Made by a program: the position numbers and the translations under genes. Shown here in pieces: positions 1,034 to 61,916 of a stretch of 64,000 nucleotides of DNA. Source of the DNA: an uncultured Verrucomicrobiae bacterium (GTDB lineage: Bacteria > Verrucomicrobiota > Verrucomicrobiia > Limisphaerales > J093); contig CAWJWM010000004.1 of assembly GCA_963846445.1 (NCBI GenBank), forward strand, positions 59,879 to 123,878, in the 5' to 3' direction. Each line of letters opens with the position of its first letter. Position 1 is the stretch's first letter. The notes under the pieces are model-generated. The model was not told the origin of the DNA, made no database searches, and saw only the letters and a list, made by a program, of their open reading frames with translations.

Positions 1034-1682
1034 CGAGGCGCGCCTCAGACCAAATCCCAATCTTCGACATCATGAACCGCCCTTTCGTATTCCTGCCCTT
1101 CTCTCCCGCGCCTCGCTCCTTAGAATCCTTGCGAAACGAAAGGGATAGGGGTGAAGGCCAAACTTGACTTGATCGCAACATGTTCGGGGCTTCAAGGATT
1201 CTAGCCTGCTCCATCTACCCAACATCTGAACAAAACAGTCAAGTTTTCCGCGAAGCGGAACGGAGGATTCCAACGAAGCTCCGCGTTCGGACGGCCCCAT
1301 CAGTACCAGCAGAATCGAAAGCCCAGGCTCGCTCGTCGGTTTGAGGCGGAGCTTCGTTGGAATCCTTGACCGGTGAAACTCGTAGTAATCAAGTCAAGTT
1401 TGTGCGCTGCGTTGAAAGGGTCAAGGAGTTCTACAGAGCGAGGCGCGGGACAGAGGTAAGGGAAGGCATGGCGACTGTTCGTGAAGGCGAGGATCGCAAA
1501 TGGTCCGGGGCGCGCCTCGCTGGAGTGACTTCTCTTTCAGAATCTGTACTGAATGGGTCAAGTTGTTGCGCCGCGCAGCGGCGCCCCTTTTAGCGAGGCG
1601 TCGACTGCCGGTGACATAGGTCAAGGCCCAACCCAGACAATCTGGCAAGGTGCCGCGTCGGTCTGAGGCGCAGCCTCGCTAA
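1031..1682. repeat. cluster of modular intergenic repeats: C 1031-1133, D 1134-1204, 20-bp IR pair 1264-1283/1337-1356, D' 1360-1431, C' 1432-1522, B' 1523-1589, A 1590-1682
   Basis: Each module recurs elsewhere in the window. A/C termini share AGCGAGGC(N3)GCCTC. D has GAATCCTTGACC/GGTCAAGGATTC inverted ends. 1360-1682 is the reverse complement in module order of 39803-40122. Confidence 0.8.
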
Positions 1683-1850
1683 AAATGAGTTGCCGATGGT
1701 TGAACACCGTCGTACAGGTGGGTGTCGATAAGCCCGAAGACGTGAAGCCTGAGGGGCGATGAAGCGGGCAAGTCAAGCCAAGACCGTGGGACGCCGGAAA
1801 AGCGCCGGGGGATCCTTTCCCCTCCCTCAGGCCCACCCGAGCCAAGACCT

Positions 1851-4060: not shown

Positions 4061-4340
4061 GCCCGCATTTCTCACCAACTTTTGATGTCGTCTGACCAGT
4101 CACCGTCACATTGCACCTGAAATGCGGGCTCTCAGAAACCCGCGCCCCAAGCAGATGGACCCAATCTCGACCACACTGTGCCCGCGTGCCCGGGTCGCCC
4201 ACGCGGCAGGGGCGCGTCCCGGCTCTGATGAACCGATGAGCCAATTCCCTTTGATGGGCGCGGGTTTCACAGACCCGGAAACCTCACCCACGGACCGTCA
4301 GGAATGCTACGACCGCCCCACTGGTGAGATTTCCGGGTTA
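4061..4340. repeat. composite repeat: 70-nt hairpin element H1 (4061-4130), segment X (4131-4195), unique Y, 45-nt segment Z (4297-4340)
   Basis: H recurs at 36842-36909, 42544-42613 and 60118-60187. X matches the reverse complement of 60053-60117. Z matches 42614-42658. Z contains the tnpA stop and may be a Tn3-type terminal IR. Confidence 0.75.
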
Positions 4341-9516: not shown

Positions 9517-12500
9517 TCATGGGCCTTTGCCTTTCTTCTCCACCGCCTCGATTTCCTTCCACGACGGCGCACGCCAAAAGTGGGCCACACCGGTGAAGGA
9601 GGTAGCCATCACCGTGCTCCCGTCGGGAGAGAAGGCAACGTGGAAGAAGAATTCTCCCTCCCCCTGGAGGGAGAGAATCTCCCTTTGCGTCGCGAGATCC
9701 CACAGCTTGACGGCGTCTTCGGCGCCGGAGCCGCCCGTGGCCAGCCGCCGGCCATCCGGCGAAAAGGCTGCTCCCCACACCGAACCCAAATGCCCACGCA
9801 AGGTCGCGAGTTCCCGGCGCTCGAACACGTCCCAGAGTCCGACATGGCCATCCCAACTCGCTGAGGTCAGCACCCGGCCATCCGGGGAAAAGAGCACGGC
9901 CAGCAATGCTCCGGTGTGGTTCGTGATAGTCGTTTCGTGCTCGCCAGAAGGAAACTCAGAGAGCTTCACTGCGCCGTTAGCGTATCCGGTGGCCAGGAGG
10001 CGATCATCCGGCGAAAGGTCGGCCGACCAGACGCGCGCAGGCTGAGGGCTCGCCAGCGGCACCTCCGCCCAGTCGTTGGTTCGCCAGATCCGCACGCTGA
10101 CTGTTTGGTCATTGTGGGCAGCCCCGGCGAGGAGGCACTTGCCACTGCGAGAAAAACGGAGGAAGCCGAACCACTCGAAAGGGACTTCGAGACTCTTGAG
10201 GAGACGCCGCTCGCTCCAATCCCAGAGGTTGACTTTTCCCGAGGCGTTACCGGCCGCCAGCCATCGGCCATCCGGGGACAGTGCCACGCCCCAATTGTTA
10301 CTGCCCAAGACGGGCAGCCTTTCCGTGAGTCGCACCGCCCTGGCGTCCCAAATCCCGAGCGAACCCTCGCGGTCTGAGGTGATGAAGTGCCGGCCATCGG
10401 GCGTAAAGGCAAAGCCAAACCGGCGAACCACCCTCGGGTCGAGCACCTCGCGTGCGAAACTTCGAGGTGCAAGCACAGTCTGAGAGCCGACCCCGAAGGA
10501 AATCGCCAGAGTCGTGTGGCCAGAAGGCTGGTTGGCCGCACTCAAGTCCCAGTAGCACGCGGCTCCCTCTTGGCATCCGCTGACGAGGGTCTTGCCATCC
10601 GGCAGGAAGGCCAAAGCCATGCCCTCGCGCTCATGGCCCCGCAGACACGCCCGTTCGGCCTGGTCAACCACGTTCCAAATTCGGATCATCCGATCATCGC
10701 CCGCCGAGGCCAGTAAGCGGCCATCGGGCGCGAAAGCTAGAGCCCCTACTTCGCCAGCCTGGTGGACCATTTGCCCTCGTGGTTCTCCAGAACTGGCATC
10801 CCAAAGGCGGATGGTTCTGCCGGCATAGCCGGATCCGGCGGCGAGCAGTTCCGACGTGGGCGAGAAGGCCAGCGCCATGACACCGTCGCCCGTTTGGGTC
10901 TGATTCGTCATCGAAACCGTGGTTTGCGCCCGCCAGTTCAGGATGCGAATCCGCCCATAATCTTCGCCTATCGCCAATCGGCTTCCCTCCGGAGAAAAGG
11001 CCACAACTCCCGCGCCCCCGTGTCGAGGGGGCAGCACAGAAAGGTTGGTCAGGGTGCGGTTGGCGGCCCACTCCACCAACGCGATGGTCCCCTGATTGTC
11101 GAAGGTTGCCATCAAGGTCCCGTCCGGAGAAAACGCCAGGGACCTTACGGGCGAAGGGTGGTTGAGCGTACGGCTGATCTTCTGTGCCTGCACGTCCCAC
11201 ACCTCAACTGCCGGCTTTCCCCGCACATTGCCGATGCTCACGGCCAACAGGTTTCCGGTGGGCGATAGCCGCAGGCTTTCGACGGAGGGGGAAGTCGGCA
11301 GCTCAGCCATCGGCCGTTTGGAGATCAAATTCCACACCACGACCTTGTCACCGCCGGTTTGCGCCGCCATCACTCTCCCATCTTGGGAGATGGCCACCGC
11401 GCCGATGGAGCCGGAATTCGTTTGGAGTCGAACGGACTCGTCGGGCTGGCAGACCTGCCATAGATAGCGCCATTCCCAACCGCGCAGGTCGATTTCGGAT
11501 TTCCTGGCGGGGCGATGGTTGTTCAGCAGGCTGGTCGCGAGCCCAACCTTGTTATCCTGCAGCGCCCGTTGCGCCAGGTTCATGTCCGCGGCATAGGCGT
11601 TCTGCCGGGCGAACAGTTCGTTGTCCTCAGCCCGGAACCGCTGCCTCTCCGCCCGCTGCCATTGCCAGACCACACCGCTGAACCCCAGGACAAACACCAG
11701 GATCAACGCCGCGATCAGACCCGCTCGCACCGGTTGCCGCCGGCACCAGCGCCAGGCTCTCTCCGGTCGGCTGACTGGCCGCGCCAGGATCGGTTCCCCG
11801 CGCAGGAAGCGGCCCAGTTCGTCCGCCAGCGCCTGGGCCGTGGCGTAGCGGCGCGACGGTTCCTTCTCCAGGCACTTCAGACAAATCGTCTCCAGGTCGC
11901 GCGGCACCGTCGGGTTGAGCAGCCGCGGCGAAACCGGCTCGGCGGTCAGCACCTGACTGACGATGACCTCCAACGAGTCCGCCTGGAACGGCGGGCGGGC
12001 CGTCAGGAGGTGGTAGAGGATCCCGCCCAAGGCATAGACGTCGCTGTACCGGCCCACCTTGCCGTGCTTGGCCGTCGCCTGCTCCGGCGGCATGAAGTTG
12101 GGCGAGCCGACCATCTGACCGCTCAGCGTCAGACTGGTCTCGCCCTCCAGGCGCTTGGCCAGGCCGAAATCGGTGATGCGCGGCTGGTCGTTGGCGTCGA
12201 TGAGCACGTTCGACGGTTTGAGGTCGCGGTGCAGGATGCCTTGCTGATGCGCGTAGTGAATCGCCTCGGCAATGGTCTTGAGGTACTGGGCCGCCCGCCG
12301 GGCCGGCAGCGGCTGCGTGCCCCACCAGGGCGGCCAGACTGGGGCCATCCACGAAATCCATCGAGAAGTAGTGCTGGCCGGCGTGGACCCCGACTTCATG
12401 GATCGCGACGATGTTCGGATGGTGCAGCACCGCCGCGGCGGCGGCCTCGGTGCGAAAGCGCTGGACGAACTGCCGGGGTCGCAAACTCGCCGGCGAGAAT

Positions 12501-14875: not shown

Positions 14876-15020
14876 ATGAACCTCGACACAGAAAGCGGCG
14901 GTAAACCGCCGCACTCCAAACGCTGCCGCGCCGTCGTGTGCGGCCTCGAACATCGTGACGCGTCTGGAGTGCGGCGGTATACCGCCGCTTTAGGTTCCTG
15001 TCCACTGAGCAGTCCAAGAA
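14876..15020. repeat. module E palindromic repeat
   Basis: 32-nt arms AAAGCGGCGGTAAACCGCCGCACTCCAAACGC (14892-14923) and its near-perfect reverse complement (14960-14991, 30/32). Related copies at 50501-50655, ~30060-30440 and ~9340-9470. Confidence 0.8.
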
Positions 15021-15037
15021 GTAACAGGTCGCTTCCC

Positions 15038-30015: not shown

Positions 30016-30440
30016 CGAGGCGCGCCTCAGACGGGCGAGGCGTCTTACCAGATCGTTCGCGAGGGTCTCAGAGCGGCAGAAGACTGCCGCACTCCAAAAC
30101 GCTCCGCGCGGTCCGGAGACGTCCGAAAAAGCGCCAGTCCCGCGGCTGCGCATACGCGTCAACCTAAGCGACGTTTAACAGCCAGGGCCAAAGTGACTGC
30201 TCCTGCAATGATCCGAGTCGCTAGTAAGGCGTGGTTTGCAGAGGGAGCTGCTTTGGTCGGACGGTGGAGAAGTCGCGCAGTCCCGCGCCGGCGGGAGAGT
30301 GCGGCGGTTTACCGCCGCTTTACGAACACGGTGGTCGGTGTGTCCCACGCAAAGCGGTGCTGAAGCACCGCAGTCTCCCGCGGCCGCGGGACTCCGCGCT
30401 GTCGAGAACGCTCGTGCCCAAGTAGCTCTGTCGATTGGCG
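30013..30440. repeat. intergenic repeat cluster: partial module C plus module E-type copies
   Basis: TTAGCGAGGCGCGCCTCAGAC at 30012-30032. CTGCCGCACTCCAAAACGC and GAGTGCGGCGGTTTACCGCCGCTTT motifs as in 14892-14991. Confidence 0.7.
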
Positions 30441-34328: not shown

Positions 34329-34349
34329 CACAGGAGCGAAAAGATTGAG

Positions 34350-34512
34350 AATTCTTGAACGTCAAAACACGCGGCAGACAAGTCAAGTTTGGCCCCGCTC
34401 TCTGAAGGGTTCAAGGATTCCACTGAGCGAGGCGCGGGGAAGAGGGGATGGGAAACACGGAGACTGTTCATGGAAATGAGGAATGGGTTTGATCTGAGGC
34501 GGCGCCTCGCTG
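34350..34512. repeat. module D (34350-34420) plus module C' (34421-34512)
   Basis: GAATTCTTGAAC...AAGTCAAGTT...GGTTCAAGGATTC, then CACTGAGCGAGGCGCGG...GCGCCTCGCTGG. Confidence 0.75.
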
Positions 34513-36841: not shown

Positions 36842-36909
36842 CCCGCATTTCAGGTGAACTGGGACGGTGACCGGTCAGATGACATCAAGAGTGGGTGAGA
36901 AATGCGGGC
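36842..36909 (+). repeat. 70-nt-class hairpin element H2, flanked by TTA direct repeats
   Basis: CCCGCATTTC...TGACCGGTCA...GAAATGCGGG. TTA at 36839-36841 and at 36910-36912; the second TTA is the complement of the TAA stop of the upstream permease gene. Confidence 0.8.
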
Positions 36910-39802: not shown

Positions 39803-40122
39803 TTAGCGAGGCTTCGCCTCAGACCGGCGAGGCGTGTGAACGACTTGTGACCGCCGGGTGCCAACCACGATCACCGGCGCCCGACGCCTCGCTAAGGGGC
39901 GCCGCTGCGCGGCGCAGAAACTTGACTCATTTATATCAGATTTCATCGAGGGAGTCACTCTAGCGAGGCGCGCTTCAGACCAAATCCCGATCTTCGACAT
40001 CATGAACCGCCCTTCGTTTTCCTGCCCTTCTCTCCCGCGCCTCGCTCCTTAGAATCCTTGACCCCTTTAACGCAGCACAACAACTTGACTTGTCTACAAC
40101 ACCTTTCACCGGTCAAGGATTC
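39803..40122. repeat. composite repeat A' (39803-39895), B (39896-39960), C (39961-40051), D (40052-40122)
   Basis: Inverted counterpart of 1360-1682. D is flanked by TA on both sides (40050-51 and 40123-24). Confidence 0.85.
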
Positions 40123-40937
40123 TACAGGGCCGCGATGGCTTCGTTGACGAGGACAATCTCATTCGGGAGTTCGACTCGGAGGATTTCGCCCACGCGGCTG
40201 ACCACGACGGACGCGCGGTACTTGTCGAGGAGCCCGGCCTCGATGCGGTAGGCGCGCACGCGCGAGTGGCCGAGGTTGAACCAGTCGGTCCGGGCCTCCC
40301 ACGTCAGCGCGCGGGCGAGGCTGGCCGCGTCAGGCGCCTTGAACTCTGGAACCAGCGCGGGGAGCCAGGCGATTGCCGGCGGCAGACCGAGTCGGGTCAG
40401 GAGCGTCTCGGGGCGGGCGAGATCCGCGAAGGCGAGGGTCTGCTCCCAGGCGCCCCCGCCTTCGTCGACGCGCAAGACGACCTGCTCGGCGCCGGCGTCG
40501 GCCTTGAGTTCCCAGATCGTCGGTCGGAGATTCAAACGGAGCTGGAACTTGCGCCACACTTGGTTGGTTCCGAACTCGGCCCGGGTGGCGAACCGCAGCC
40601 GCCGCGTCGAATCCTCGAACAAGAGGTTGCCGTCCAGATCGATTGTGTAGCCGGTGAAACCCCGAATCCGGCCTTCGATGGCGTGCGGGTCGGTTTCGGT
40701 CGATGCGCCGGCGGTTTCGTCGATGGTTGCCACCCAGCGGCAGAATCCGATCTTCTGGCCCCGATGGAGAATCTGGAGGGAGGAATCGTCAGGGGCGGTA
40801 AGCATCCGTTCCCACACGGTGGCGAGGGGCACTCGGCTGCCGCGGTTCTGCAGGCTGCTCATTTCCGAGCGCCACAGCAGGACGTTCATGACCACCCAGA
40901 ACAGGATGACCAGGGGGAAGTACACCCGTTTGAGCAT
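40122..40937 (-). CDS. hypothetical membrane-anchored protein
   Basis: 271-aa intact ORF with N-terminal TM segment VYFPLVILFWVVMNVLLW. No recognisable family. Its TAG stop is formed by the TA flank plus the last base of module D. Confidence 0.6.
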   Translation of the reverse strand: MLKRVYFPLVILFWVVMNVLLWRSEMSSLQNRGSRVPLATVWERMLTAPDDSSLQILHRGQKIGFCRWVATIDETAGASTETDPHAIEGRIRGFTGYTIDLDGNLLFEDSTRRLRFATRAEFGTNQVWRKFQLRLNLRPTIWELKADAGAEQVVLRVDEGGGAWEQTLAFADLARPETLLTRLGLPPAIAWLPALVPEFKAPDAASLARALTWEARTDWFNLGHSRVRAYRIEAGLLDKYRASVVVSRVGEILRVELPNEIVLVNEAIAAL

Positions 40938-42543: not shown

Positions 42544-42747
42544 GCCCGCATTTCTCACCAACTTTTGATGTCTTCTGACCGGTCACCGTCCCATTGCACC
42601 TGAAATGCGGGCTGTCAGGCATGCTGCGACCGCCCCACTGGTGAGATTTCCGGGTTAGCGAGGCGTCGAATGCCGGTGAGGTTTGTAGCAGCCCAGCGTA
42701 GACGAGCCGTTCACAGGTCGCGTCGGTCTGAGGCGCAGCCTCGCTAA
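42544..42747. repeat. hairpin H3 (42544-42613), segment Z copy (42614-42658), module A (42655-42747)
   Basis: H and Z match 4061-4130 and 4297-4340. Module A runs TTAGCGAGGCGTCG...GGTCTGAGGCGCAGCCTCGCTAA. Confidence 0.8.
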
Positions 42748-43853
42748 AGGCTATCGACGAGCTTCTGCATGGCTTCCTCCTGGCGGGCAATCGACTCGAC
42801 GAGCCGGAACTGGGTGCGGCAGCGGTCGAGGTTGTGGTCTGAACGATGCACGCGGAAGTAGACATCGCCCATGAGATAATCGGCCAGGAAACGAATGCCG
42901 ATCGTGTAGGTGATCAGCTTGCCCGCAAAGGCCAGGTAACGCCGCTCGGACGGCGTGAGGAACTCCTCGACGGCTTTCACGTATCCGCGGGCCAACGCTT
43001 CGAACATCGGCATTTGCATTTCGACCTTCGTGAGGTCCTGTTCGTCTTCGAGTGTCGGGCTGGTCGTCGTGCGCACCATGTCGCCGAAGTCGTAGTGCAC
43101 CAACCCCGGCATGACCGTGTCCAGATCGACCACGCACATGGCCCGCCCCGTCTCCCAATCGAGCATCACGTTGTTGAATTTCGTGTCGTTGTGCGTGATG
43201 CGCTCCGGGACATCGCCCGCGGCATGGGCGTCGAGCAACGTGCCGATCCAGGACTCCTGTTTGAGCGCGAACTCGATTTCCCGGGCTGCGGTCGAGGCGC
43301 GATTGCAGTGGTCTTCGGCGATGGCCCGCTGCAGGGTGTCGAAGCGCTTTCGCGTGTTGTGGAAATCCGGAATGGTCTCGTGCAGGCGTTCGCCGGGAAG
43401 ATCGGCAACCAACGACTGGAACTCGCCAAACGCCCGCCCAGCCTCGTAGGCCTGCGTCGGGTTCTGAACCGACTCGAATGACTGGACTCGTTCCACAAAA
43501 ACAAAGGTCCGCCAGAACTCGCCGTTCCCGTCGCAGTAGTAGGGCTTTCCGTCCCGGGTCGGCACGATGGTCAAAGCCCGGCGGGTCATCTGGCGGGCCG
43601 TCAGGTTTTGCAGTTTGTTCCGCAGGTGGCTTGTGACCCGCATCACGTTCTCCATCACGCCGACCGGGTTCCGGAAAACGCTCTGGTTGATCCGCTGGTG
43701 AATGTAGCGGACGAGGATCCCGCCCTGATCGTACGTCGCGGTGTAGGTCTCGTTGATGTGCCCGATCTTGCACGCTTCGGCGTGCAGGATTTGTCCGTAG
43801 ATCTGGAACTGGCGCGATACTTCCTGCAGATGCTGCTCACAGTACAATGGCAT
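42744..43853 (-). CDS. APH-fold sugar/aminoglycoside-type kinase, N-acetylhexosamine-1-kinase (NahK)-like
   Basis: GHINETY; ITHNDTKFNNVMLD; VVDLDTVMPG..HYDFGD. The start is taken at MPLYCEQ. Its TAG stop lies inside the terminal TTAGCGAGGC of module A. Confidence 0.65.
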   Translation of the reverse strand: MPLYCEQHLQEVSRQFQIYGQILHAEACKIGHINETYTATYDQGGILVRYIHQRINQSVFRNPVGVMENVMRVTSHLRNKLQNLTARQMTRRALTIVPTRDGKPYYCDGNGEFWRTFVFVERVQSFESVQNPTQAYEAGRAFGEFQSLVADLPGERLHETIPDFHNTRKRFDTLQRAIAEDHCNRASTAAREIEFALKQESWIGTLLDAHAAGDVPERITHNDTKFNNVMLDWETGRAMCVVDLDTVMPGLVHYDFGDMVRTTTSPTLEDEQDLTKVEMQMPMFEALARGYVKAVEEFLTPSERRYLAFAGKLITYTIGIRFLADYLMGDVYFRVHRSDHNLDRCRTQFRLVESIARQEEAMQKLVDSL

Positions 43854-49246: not shown

Positions 49247-49303
49247 ACACGCAGCACACAAACTTGACTCGTCTACACCAAGTTTCGCCGGTCACGGATT
49301 CTC
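49247..49303 (+). repeat. partial module D
   Basis: ACGCAGCACACAAACTTGACTCGTCTACACC...GGTCACGGATTC; compare 40070-40122. It contains the TGA stop of the convergent gene 49292-50452. Confidence 0.65.
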
Positions 49304-50452: not shown

Positions 50453-50500
50453 TCGTGGTGCATGGTTCCTGGGCAGGTCGGACATGCGTTGGCCGATCTC

Positions 50501-50655
50501 CATGAACCTCGACACGGAAAGCGGCGCTGAAGCGCCCGCACTCTCACGTAGCGCGGGACTTCGCGCTCTCGACTGCGGGTGGCAAGGTCGCGAAGCGCTT
50601 GGAGTGCGGCGGTTTACCGCCGCTTTAGGTTCACGGCCACTGAGCAGTTCAACAA
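50501..50655. repeat. module E repeat copy
   Basis: CATGAACCTCGACACGGAAAGCGG...GGAGTGCGGCGGTTTACCGCCGCTTTAGGTTC..CCACTGAGCAGTTCAA matches 14876-15020. It contains the stop of gene 50649-51137. Confidence 0.8.
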
Positions 50656-51137
50656 GGAACATCTGGCTTCTTTTCATTCGTTGGGGCCGGCGCCGAAGCA
50701 GGGCCCAGTTGCCTGACGAGTCGGGCAACGACTTCCACGGCGGCAGGAATGCCTCTTTGGGCCGCGGCGGAAAGCGGCTGTCCGAGTTCGGTTGACTCGA
50801 TCTGCACCTTGACAAGCCAGGCGGCCGGGCACCGCCCGAACACGGCCTGGGCCAGAGCCAGCAGCGACTCGGGATCGCTCGTGTGTCCCAGGGGCCGACG
50901 CAGGTCAACCGGGCGACATGGCGTGACCTCGACTTGCCCGGGCGGGCCGTCCAGGGCGGCATCGACGAAAATGGCGGTGTCGGACTGGGACACCATTTCG
51001 GCAAGCTCGGGGGTGAGTCCTGCAGCGCCGTGCACGCGCGTGTCCGGCAGGTTGAACGCCGCCAGGGCTGCGGCCACCCGCGGCCCGACGGCGTCGTCGC
51101 CGCGCAGTTCGTTGCCATAACCAATCACAAGAATCAT
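50649..51137 (-). CDS. hydrogenase maturation endopeptidase (HyaD/HybD/HoxW, peptidase A31) homologue
   Basis: MILVIGYGNELRGDDAVGPRVA...AIFVDAA...LGHTS. These match the GNxxxxDD, D and H metal-ligand positions of the family. No hydrogenase genes are in the window. Confidence 0.7.
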   Translation of the reverse strand: MILVIGYGNELRGDDAVGPRVAAALAAFNLPDTRVHGAAGLTPELAEMVSQSDTAIFVDAALDGPPGQVEVTPCRPVDLRRPLGHTSDPESLLALAQAVFGRCPAAWLVKVQIESTELGQPLSAAAQRGIPAAVEVVARLVRQLGPASAPAPTNEKKPDVPC

Positions 51138-59639: not shown

Positions 59640-60255
59640 GGCACGCCGCCCCGGATGGCGATACCGAAATGGCAGGCCCAGGGAGCGCGTTGACATTCAA
59701 AGACTCAATGCCCATTGGGACCGTGAATCTTGCGCATTCCCCCTCACCCGCCCTACGGGCACCCTCTCCCACGCTCCGACCAGCGGGAGGGACGGCGTGG
59801 AGAGAGCCACCTGTTCCTTTATGAACTGCTCAGTGGCCATGAACCTGTACCGCCGGCTTTCCAGCCGGCTCGGGGGCAGTCACATGAGATTCCACCGTGC
59901 CGACCTGGAGGTCGGCGGTACGGGGGAGGTTCATGGAGAGAGGGTACTGTTTATGGAGGTTAGCGAGGCTTCGCCTCAGACCGGCGAGGCGTGTGAACGG
60001 CTTGTGGCCGCTCGGTGCCCGCCACGATCACCGGCGCCCGACGCCTCGCTAACCCGGGCACGCGGACACAGTGTGGTCGAGATTGGGTCCATCTGCTTGG
60101 GGCGCGGGTTTCTGACAGCCCGCATTTCAGGTGCGATGTGACAGTGACCGGTCAGATGACATCAAAAGTTGGTGAGAAATGCGGGCTAAGGGGCGCCGCT
60201 GCGCGGCGCAAAAACTTGGCTCATTGACTACAGATTTCAAACGAGGAGTAACTCT
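59640..60255. repeat. repeat cluster: module F (59640-59955), A' (59960-60052), inserted X-H unit (60053-60185), B (60190-60255)
   Basis: Same modules as 38661-38953, 39803-39960 and 4061-4195. CTAA occurs at both junctions of the X-H insert (60049-52 and 60186-89). Confidence 0.85.
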
Positions 60256-60290
60256 TGCGCGGTTTGCCGGACTGTGGCCTGCTTCGGACC

Positions 60291-60995
60291 ATGAAACTCA
60301 CGCGCCACAAGCGCAACATTCTCGTTCTGCTGGTTCTCACCGGATTCGGTCCCGCCGTTCTCGCCCAACCCGCCGGCGGCCCCGGGCGGCGGCCAGGCGC
60401 AGCCTCGGCCTTTGCCGCCGCACCGCAGGCCAAAGACGACGCGGAAAAGAAGATACTCGACGTGCTCGACGAGGTGGACCGAGTTCAGCGGCGGGGCACG
60501 ATGAGCGTCCCTCGCGACGACGGACGTCTGCTGCGTTTGCTGGCCGAGGGGGCGGGCGCCAAACATGTCGTCGAGTTGGGCACCTCGCATGGTTACTCCG
60601 GGATCTGGTTTTGTCTGGCGCTGCGGACCACCGGAGGCAGGCTGACGACGTTCGAGATCGACGCCCAGCGCGCAGCCGCAGCGCGGGAGAATTTCAAACG
60701 GGCAGGCGTGGACGGCCTGGTCACCCTGATCGAGGGCGATGCCCATCAGGAGGTGACGAAACTCGAGGACCCGATCGACCTGCTCTTTCTCGATGCCGAC
60801 AAGGAGGGGTATGAAGACTACTTGAAGAAACTGTGGCCGCTGGTCCGCCCGGGCGGACTGATCGTCGCCCACAACATCAACGCGGGCATGGCCGATCCGG
60901 GATTCATCCGGGCGATCACCACGAACCCCGGGCTCGATTCGGTCTTTCTGAGTGTCGGCTCCTCGGGGCTCTCACTCAGCCTGAAAAAGCGTTGA
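60291..60995 (+). CDS. class I SAM-dependent O-methyltransferase (family 3, CCoAOMT-like) with signal/anchor sequence
   Basis: VVELGTSHGYSGIW; FEID; IDLLFLDADKEGY; GGLIVAHN. Confidence 0.8.
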   Translation: MKLTRHKRNILVLLVLTGFGPAVLAQPAGGPGRRPGAASAFAAAPQAKDDAEKKILDVLDEVDRVQRRGTMSVPRDDGRLLRLLAEGAGAKHVVELGTSHGYSGIWFCLALRTTGGRLTTFEIDAQRAAAARENFKRAGVDGLVTLIEGDAHQEVTKLEDPIDLLFLDADKEGYEDYLKKLWPLVRPGGLIVAHNINAGMADPGFIRAITTNPGLDSVFLSVGSSGLSLSLKKR

Positions 60996-60999
60996 ACTC

Positions 61000-61249
61000 A
61001 GAGCGAGGCGTCGGACGCCGGTGATCGTGGTGGACACCCAGCGGCCACGAGCGGCTCGCACGCCGCGCTGGTCTGAGGCGAAGCCCCGCTAAAGTGACTC
61101 CTCGTTTGAAATCTGTAGTCAATGAGTCAAGTTTTTGCGCCGCGCAGCGGCGCCCCTTAGCGAGGCGTCGGACGCCGGTGATCGTGGTGGACACCCAGCG
61201 GCCACGAGCGGCTCGCACGCCGCGCTGGTCTGAGGCGAAGCCCCGCTAA
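61000..61249. repeat. A (61000-61092), B' (61093-61156), A (61157-61249): near-identical 92-bp direct repeat around an inverted B module
   Basis: The two A copies are identical by eye apart from the first base or two. The cluster ends one base before the ATG at 61251. Confidence 0.9.
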
Positions 61250-61250
61250 A

Positions 61251-61916
61251 ATGAATGCGGTCGAACCGCCCATGGAGAGGCGCGCTTTCACGTTGATCGA
61301 GTTGCTGGTGGTCGTCGCCATCATCGGCATTCTCGCTGGTTTGCTGCTGCCGGGGCTGAGCCGGGCCAAGCAACAATCCCGGTTGACCGCGTGCTCGTCG
61401 AACCTGCGGCAACTGGGCCTGGCGCTGGCCCTGTATGTGGATGGCGCGGGGCAGCGCTTTCCGCGCGCTGACTTCAGCGACAATCGGCTGGGATTGCCTC
61501 CCGCCACCCACACGAATTCCCTCCGGCAGACGCTGTCACCTTACGTGCCCGTGGAGCGTCTCTTCCTCTGTCCCACGCTGCGCCAGCAGGCCGGGCGGTC
61601 GGTGGATTATCTCACCGATTACAATTACCTCTGCGTGCACGGCTGGAGCCTGGTGCCGTTTTTTGGCGGCTTCGACAACGACCGGTCCGGCGTCTGCGAT
61701 CAAGCGATGGCGGACATCCGCCGTTCCTCGGAAAAGCCCATGATCGTCTGCGACGGCATGGGGGAGCACGTCGGTGTATCGGGGGACGCGGTGTTCAACC
61801 AGGGAATGGGTGGCGTGCGTGGCGCGCAGAACACGCTTTTCGTGGACGGGCACGTCGGTCTGGTGCGAGGCACCCTTCAAGATATCATGGCCATCTATCA
61901 GTCACCGAATCAATGA
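61251..61916 (+). CDS. prepilin-type N-terminal cleavage/methylation-domain protein (DUF1559-like)
   Basis: [26 protein letters not shown]; C-terminal FVDGHV motif. The true start may be the Met at 61272. Confidence 0.8.

Follow-up and report, generated by a model that had tools for sequence, protein, structure and literature searches.

Within the 64-kb window, the whole stretch of DNA analysed here, an O-methyltransferase ORF (60255-60995, with a match to Pfam PF01596) is preceded by a tract of small repeats. In order, these are the repeat A', an insert of 133 bp and a module that we call B (Table 1). A' is a hairpin element with the inverted ends TTAG-CGAGGC...GCCTCG-CTAA and a fold z of -2.7. 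Six copies of it occur in the window, at 59960-60052, 39803-39895, 42655-42748, 61002-61093, 61157-61249 and 1590-1684, next to half-copies at 1030, 2009, 30012 and 39960; lone A' left ends (CTAGCGAGGCGCGCCTCAGACC) are also present. As for coding capacity, the insert is overlapped only by a spurious ORF of 70 aa. The Rfam scan of the whole window at the gathering threshold gave no match for the hairpin H of the insert, for A' or for B. Its sole match is a group II intron domain: the catalytic domain RF00029 at 2100-2213 on the minus strand (51.8 bits, with a gathering score of 40), close to the A'-type repeat ends at 1030 and 2009. A tRNA search of the window found none, and a consensus scan for promoters and terminators around the insertion site gave no match.

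The A'|B junction at 60048-60197 is interrupted and its CTAA doubled, exactly as a first-pass annotation of the letters had read it. At the empty counterpart, A' (39803-39895) ends in GCCTCGCTAA and B starts at once with GGGGCGCCGCTGCGCGGCGC: the junction reads GCCTCGCTAA|GGGGCGCC, with CTAA at 39892-39895. The filled site runs through GCCTCGCTAA (CTAA 60049-60052), CCCGGGCACGCGG...GAGAAATGCGGG (60053-60185, 133 bp), a second CTAA (60186-60189) and finally GGGGCGCC. When the two sites are aligned, the flanks prove homologous and the CTAA duplicated. A' at 59960-60052 is identical to 39803-39895 at 87 of 93 positions (93.5%); B at 60190-60262 agrees with the reverse complement of 61084-61156 at 68/73 positions (93%) and with 39896-39968 at 64/75. 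In an alignment of six sequences, a single clean gap of exactly 137 bp (133 + 4) distinguishes the filled site from five empty junctions, three of them in the window (39803-39965, 61249-61087(-) and 1684-1518(-)), one in another MAG (L024) and one on the orthologous contig L100. It is confirmed that the 133-bp insert separates A' from B by insertion, with a 4-bp duplication of CTAA.

Table 1. Features of the filled site, its empty counterparts in the window and the related element copies.
Feature	Position	Strand	Description
Host repeat A'	59960..60052	+	93-bp hairpin element, inverted ends TTAGCGAGGC...GCCTCGCTAA; last 4 bases are the target
Left target-site duplication CTAA	60049..60052	+	doubles as the end of A'
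Segment X	60053..60118	+	internal; corresponds to 146-211 in the full element and forms the right half of its middle module; no TIR
H hairpin, 67 bp	60119..60185	+	right TIR GGTGAGAAATGCGGG at 60171-60185; hairpin z = -3.2
Right target-site duplication CTAA	60186..60189	+	
Module B	60190..60262	+	usually adjoins A'; just upstream of the O-methyltransferase gene (ATG 60291)
Full-length 276-bp composite MITE	4062..4337	-	H2 hairpin + middle module + H hairpin; CTAA 4338-4341, other flank CGCA
H hairpin alone	36842..36908	+	flanks CTTA/CTTA
110-bp internal-deletion derivative	42545..42654	-	left 47 bp joined to right ~75 bp; at the CTAA end of the A' copy 42655-42748
Paralogous empty site	39803..39965	+	A' 39803-39895 direct into B 39896-39965
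Second paralogous empty A'|B junction	61087..61249	-	second A' next to it, at 61002-61093
Third empty A'|B junction	1518..1684	-	more diverged

The insert had been taken for the exact reverse complement of 4061-4195. The correspondence stands as near-identity with 4062-4194 (127/133, 95.5%), not as equality. The idea of a free-standing 'X-H unit' has to be given up: 4061-4195 belongs to a 276-bp element, 4062-4337, of which it makes up the right part. The insert at 60053-60185 is the right-hand 133 bp of this element, with the right TIR kept and the left 143 bp, including the left TIR, absent.

The full element consists of a 62-bp hairpin H2 (arms CCCGGAAATCTCACC), a middle module of ~147 bp with inverted ends of its own, and the 67-bp hairpin H (arms CCCGCATTTC). 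The outermost sequences, CCCGGAAATCTCACCAG and CCCGCATTTCTCACCAA, make up an imperfect TIR. Full-length matches to 4062-4337, at 88-92% identity, occur in three Verrucomicrobiota MAGs (loci L001, L023, L037, L043, L066, L067 and L076), and further copies lie on the activated-sludge contigs L130, L132 and L133. The family counts five copies in the window, ~20 in the three MAGs, and seven metagenome contigs. Small, non-coding, bounded by TIRs at both ends, flanked by a target duplication and dispersed in several copies, the 276-bp family qualifies as a bacterial MITE under the working definition; the copy at 60053-60185, with the right repeat only, is a truncated member. In the full copies of L023 and L067, the junction before H reads ...TTTCTGATTAG|CCCGC, a YTAR-like TTAG; this hints at an origin of the composite in an earlier nested insertion, that of H.

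The duplicated target is 4 bp long and of the form YTAR, rather than TA alone. Perfect flanks border six of eight full-length copies (CTAA five times, CTAT once); imperfect flanks occur in several full or H-only copies, such as CTAA/CGCA at window 4062 and CCAG/CTAG in L037. Two more full copies, L130 and L133, carry CTAA/CTAA each. Full and H-only copies with matching flanks amount to seven with CTAA, one with CTAT and one with CTTA. Since the matching pairs CTAT and CTTA are non-palindromic, the tetranucleotide varies by site and is not part of the element. The earlier proposal of a duplicated, TA-containing target thereby extends to the whole family, with CTAA/CTAA, CTAT/CTAT and CTTA/CTTA, and to autonomous ISs with CTAG/CTAG; permutation tests agree with it. 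Among 44 short elements from other phyla, described below, the two flanks are identical in 12 against 6.2 expected (permutation P = 0.006), and left and right match above chance at both outer flank positions (P = 0.02 and 0.002). These statistics favour a 4-bp duplication over one of TA only. In many family members the two flanks differ by one base and the duplication signal is degraded; the flank census shows somewhat less variation at the element-adjacent bases (left G, right C) than at the outer positions.

A search with 42 nt that join CTAG to the terminal sequence gave matches on two complete plasmids, with an annotated IS1380-family transposase gene ~95 bp downstream of the site in each. 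The plasmid IS is 1655 bp long, with perfect 16-bp TIRs (CCCGCATTTCTCACAG), and it stands at two different sites with CTAG/CTAG at each. Its transposase of 460 aa scores 407 bits on NF033539 (the IS1380 equivalog) and 512 bits on PF13701. Contigs for four relatives hold ISs of 1663-1698 bp, whose left ends read CCCGCATTTCTCACC, CCCGCTTTTCTCACG or CCCGGA(A/T)ATCTCACC and whose right ends read GGTGAGAAATGCGGG or near variants, the right-repeat type being CCCGCATTTCTCACC. The transposases of ISs with these ends score 341-407 bits on NF033539 (cut-off 180), and their clade is very abundant in metagenomes (E <= 1e-10 for 8000 of 8000 scored candidates).

The IS on contig L127 has the same asymmetric end pair as the window MITE, identical at 15/15 and 16/16 positions, and the right end of H is identical at 16/16 positions to the IRR and adjoining flank base of IS1380-family ISs. 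Beyond the termini, we found no similarity between the MITE and the L127 IS; since only the terminal repeats are common to MITE and IS, a relationship of descent is not demonstrated. IS1380-family elements make duplications of 4-5 bp and have ends that begin with CC, and the 276-bp family agrees with this description in its 4-bp duplications and CCCG...CGGG ends. Because of the TIR identity and the same type of duplication, the family is best described as an IS1380-type MITE, which we infer to be mobilised in trans.

The autonomous ISs with matching ends come from Pseudomonadota plasmids and unassigned metagenome contigs, none of them tied to the genome of the window or to the Verrucomicrobiota contigs examined. 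A tblastn search with IS1380 transposases gave no match in the 64-kb window or in loci L001-L097. Candidates for an autonomous partner among 93 genome loci, sought as TIR-like site pairs 0.7-3.5 kb apart, turned out to be ordinary genes (L076, L022, L012 and L046). A 414-bp gammaproteobacterial MITE had no blastn match in plasmids; a scan of viral contigs for the terminal repeat yielded no IS and four lone chance sites, and a text search of the literature for the terminal sequence yielded chance matches only. IS701, which makes a fixed 4-bp duplication (PMC2266710), was rejected as partner: its consensus ends differ from those found here, and against the IS701 model the partner transposase reaches only 23 bits.

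The features of the locus are probably explained together by the arrival of a non-autonomous MITE copy, from a family that an IS1380-family DDE transposase would move in trans. The transposase would recognise TIRs of 15-17 bp (left type CCCGGAAATCTCACC, right type CCCGCATTTCTCACC) and integrate at YTAR with a 4-bp staggered cut, the repair of which would give the 4-bp duplication. One copy inserted into the terminal CTAA of an A' hairpin, ~240 bp upstream of the O-methyltransferase start codon. Most probably, what was inserted would have been a full-length 276-bp copy, from which a slipped-strand or microhomology deletion would then have removed the left 143 bp. Such a deletion, between the two ACCCGG hexamers of ctaACCCGGaaat (the boundary of duplication and left end) and gcgACCCGGgcac (internal), would spare both copies of CTAA.

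The left edge of the insert, CTAA|CCCGGGCACGCGG, or YTAR|CCCGGGCAC when written generally, consists of internal middle-module sequence and coincides with this 6-bp ACCCGG microhomology. In the full copy of the window, gcgACCCGGgcac stands at the internal position and ctaACCCGGaaat at the true left terminus. A metagenome scan for CCCGGGCACGCGGRCACAGTGTGG found it on seven contigs, preceded by ...gggcga or ...gggcgc in 7/7. Counting these apparently full-length metagenome copies and the full copy of the window, CCCGGGCACGCGG is internal in 8/8 other occurrences and never a terminus; so far, 60053 is the only place with the truncated boundary. As the edge motif is internal everywhere else, a full-length insertion with later deletion in place is favoured and, on this circumstantial evidence, most probable. 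It is improbable that the 133-bp copy moved in its present form.

The opposite case, in which the true right end was paired with an internal surrogate left end (CCCGG...) and the 133 bp moved in one step, seems rather unlikely to us. The perfect CTAA/CTAA flanks are equally compatible with it, and at the left edge the opening five bases, CCCGG, are those of the true left end. Within the IS1380 family, ISEcp1 uses poorly matching alternative ends. A one-step move would resemble such use. In Paracoccus, IS1380-family elements form 'TMos' from one IS copy and adjacent DNA of various lengths (PMC3281130). However, past CCCGG the edge matches the 17-bp TIR consensus at only ~8/17 positions (by eye), the other left-truncated copies (L006, L020, L025, L035 and L085) have no matching left duplication, and the edge motif is internal in every other occurrence. 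Insertion of a full-length copy followed by deletion accommodates the same flanks.

The orthologous site comes from contig L100, a 2.9-kb low-coverage short-read contig of an ENA metagenome that encodes an identical O-methyltransferase of 246 aa. It is 97.8% identical to window 60185-61060 over 876 bp and 98.4% identical to 61216-61408. Here the sequence reads ...GACGCTTCGCTAA|ATCGCGCCGCTGCGCGGCGC, and CGCTAA|ATCGCGCC at the junction itself: A' abuts B, CTAA is single and the insert is absent. The non-coding A' and B of L100 are only ~93% identical to those of the window, and upstream of A' the contig is not collinear with the window, which there agrees with the more distant relatives L101 and L102. 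Given the empty orthologous site, the insert is polymorphic between two very close relatives. It is a clean filled/empty polymorphism between near-identical strains, located directly upstream of a gene. With paralogous and orthologous empty sites both at hand, the first-pass claim that one repeat family had inserted into another is upheld.

The two-state comparison of window and L100 gives no polarity by itself, so the filled state could be ancestral, with a later loss of the element from the L100 relative through precise excision or a deletion between the two CTAA copies. Piggybac-type relatives do excise precisely. We nevertheless hold this order of events to be clearly unlikely. None of the four non-orthologous A'|B junctions carries an insert, so A'B is the original unit and an insertion happened at some point; moreover, a one-ended remnant that lacks the left terminal repeat should resist excision by the transposase. 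A second repeat-content polymorphism lies within 1.5 kb, downstream of the O-methyltransferase gene: window 61002-61251 is composed of A'-B-A', whereas L100 has at the same place (2399-2722) a single A' that is split by an unrelated insert of ~226 bp, without B.

Mobilisation of the element by another transposase family that targets YTAR or CTAG, be it IS5 or IS630/Tc1-mariner, is very improbable. IS630/Tc1-mariner elements have a CTAG target and duplicate TA, and the constant flank bases, G on the left and C on the right, are what a TA duplication with a G...C terminus would lead one to expect. IS5, for its part, duplicates 5'-YTAR-3' (PMC5009759). Yet the TIRs are identical to the ends of the IS1380 clade and not to those of IS5, and the autonomous elements found with these ends carry only IS1380-type transposases. 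Nor does a TA-only duplication predict the agreement at the outer flank positions or the CTAT/CTAT and CTTA/CTTA pairs; the duplication found is not limited to TA. Least of all do we believe in a mosaic made by recombination or module shuffling of intergenic repeats, as in BIME/REP, with a coincidental CTAA: the genome is indeed rich in mosaics (A', A'B, A'BA', Y-H, H alone), but the gap is base-exact with the copies of a 4-bp direct repeat at its edges, members of the family have 4-bp flanks that match at many unrelated sites (the rare CTAT and CTTA among them), the family's TIRs are common to a transposase-encoding IS with the same flanks, and an orthologous empty site exists.

Nested insertion of a MITE with a 4-bp duplication is ordinary mobile-element biology, and the understanding of transposition is unchanged by this finding. 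As in other bacterial MITEs (Correia/NEMIS, RUP; nested MITEs), the elements are small (276 bp), non-coding and intergenic, carry TIRs, duplicate their target, exist in many copies and in internal-deletion variants, and are inserted into other repeats. Unlike in Correia/NEMIS, RUP and similar families, the TIRs match IS1380-family ISs and not IS630 or IS5-type partners. Further differences from bacterial MITEs are the 4-bp YTAR duplication in place of TA, the three hairpin modules and the one-ended remnant.

With the IS1380 family (NF033539, PF13701; IS1247, ISPme1, ISEcp1) the element shares its terminal 15-16 bp, identical to those of the clade of ~1655-1698 bp with a transposase of ~460 aa, and 4-bp flanking repeats with a central TA; unlike the family, it has no transposase gene and no internal similarity to the ISs. 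A 5-bp duplication is reported for IS1247 (PMC3281130). The likeness to piggyBac, a resemblance only, lies in the CCC...GGG ends and the 4-bp duplication with a TA core. The piggyBac duplication is typically TTAA, with TTAG and CTAA variants reported, and IS1380 transposases have been taken as the prokaryotic outgroup of piggyBac (PMC10813416). In contrast, the present elements are bacterial, and their target is YTAR, with CTAG and CTAA preferred and not TTAA. IS5 has the same 4-bp YTAR target duplication (PMC5009759), but its TIRs are unrelated, and the autonomous partners here encode IS1380-type transposases. REP/BIME elements with RAYT make no target duplication and depend on a Y1 (HUH) transposase, whereas here a duplication is present and the TIRs match a DDE-type IS. 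The puzzling mosaic repeats of the window are explained: they are MITEs of one family, deletion derivatives of these and the sites in which the family prefers to land. What is gained is the identification of the true element, of an IS1380-type partner and of the YTAR target, together with an orthologous empty allele and with termini that mark hairpins in many phyla.

The landing sites are few. YTAR occurs 69 times in the window against ~490 times expected from base composition, a ~7-fold depletion, and CTAG occurs 10 times against 207 expected. Around 15 of the 69 YTAR sites, about a fifth, are A'-type repeat termini (GCCTCGCTAR / YTAGCGAGGC). Because YTAR is scarce in this GC-rich genome and repeat ends hold about one fifth of it, nesting is expected: the depletion directs insertions to where other repeats end. 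Five independent insertions occupy gcctcgCTAA, at window 60053, window 42654, L043, L130 and L133. By our own count, 5 of 13 insertions at A' ends, against ~22% expected, do not amount to a significant preference beyond YTAR (binomial P ~0.14), and target scarcity is sufficient to explain nesting.

A scan of the genome collection for the arms of H returned, next to the Verrucomicrobiota copies, short hairpins of 56-80 bp from many phyla. These have the common termini CCCGCATTTCTCACCAG...CTGGTGAGAAATGCGGG (16-17 bp), unrelated interiors and YTAR on both sides; with them, a repeat family of many phyla is assigned to the IS1380 family. Examples of the hairpin elements, some of which reach 184-406 bp, are L015 1181-1236, L053 782-838, L070 7109-7178 and L090 1704-2109. 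The hosts (L002-L093) include Acidobacteriota, Gammaproteobacteria, Hydrogenedentota, Planctomycetota, Bdellovibrionales, Gemmatimonadota and Acanthopleuribacter, and several of the genomes carry more than one copy.

We put forward as a speculation, itself on the unlikely side, that H belongs to a very widespread and apparently undescribed superfamily of IS1380-type MITEs with piggyBac-like ends, target and flank carry-over. Its forms would be, with the same reserve, hairpins of 56-80 bp, versions of up to 400 bp and the 276-bp composite of Verrucomicrobiota. Its 14-17-bp termini (CCCGCATTTCTCACC) would be conserved across at least eight phylum-level groups, Verrucomicrobiota included. Under this proposal, the one-base differences between flanks could reflect carry-over of the donor flank, as in piggyBac, and not decay; if that were true, this clade would offer a model of the piggyBac mechanism in bacteria. 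One IS of the IS1380 clade, at two insertions (L105/L107 and L106), has the rare GTAG at one flank and YTAG at the other, which would fit carry-over. These flank pairs were left unused as a test of carry-over, as L112-L117 combine one right flank with differing left flanks; the short contigs among them are probably chimeric. To our knowledge, non-autonomous IS1380 derivatives are little described. Of 12 papers in which IS1380 and miniature inverted repeats are both mentioned, judged by title, none names the two together there, which is weak evidence of novelty at the family level.

Other repeats share the window with these elements. A module containing AAACTTGACT... stands upstream of genes at 1360-1402, 34349-34391, 40082-40123 and 49249-49301, and in the B modules 39896-39965 and 60190-60262. 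Within B, it is preceded by a GC hairpin and followed by GAGGAG, a Shine-Dalgarno-like motif; the sigma-70 consensus scan called no promoter. A further repeat family is built on the hairpin GAGTGCGGCGGTTTACCGCCGCTTT and an adjacent segment of ~50 bp, at 14891-15035, 30072-30331, 50497-50670 and 59805-59856, with a partial copy ~100 bp upstream of the A' that bears the insert. Finally, a motif of ~47 nt occurs six times at 9734-11013, at distances of 126, 264 and 453 nt, each divisible by 3; a repeated protein domain, rather than a DNA element, is the probable explanation.
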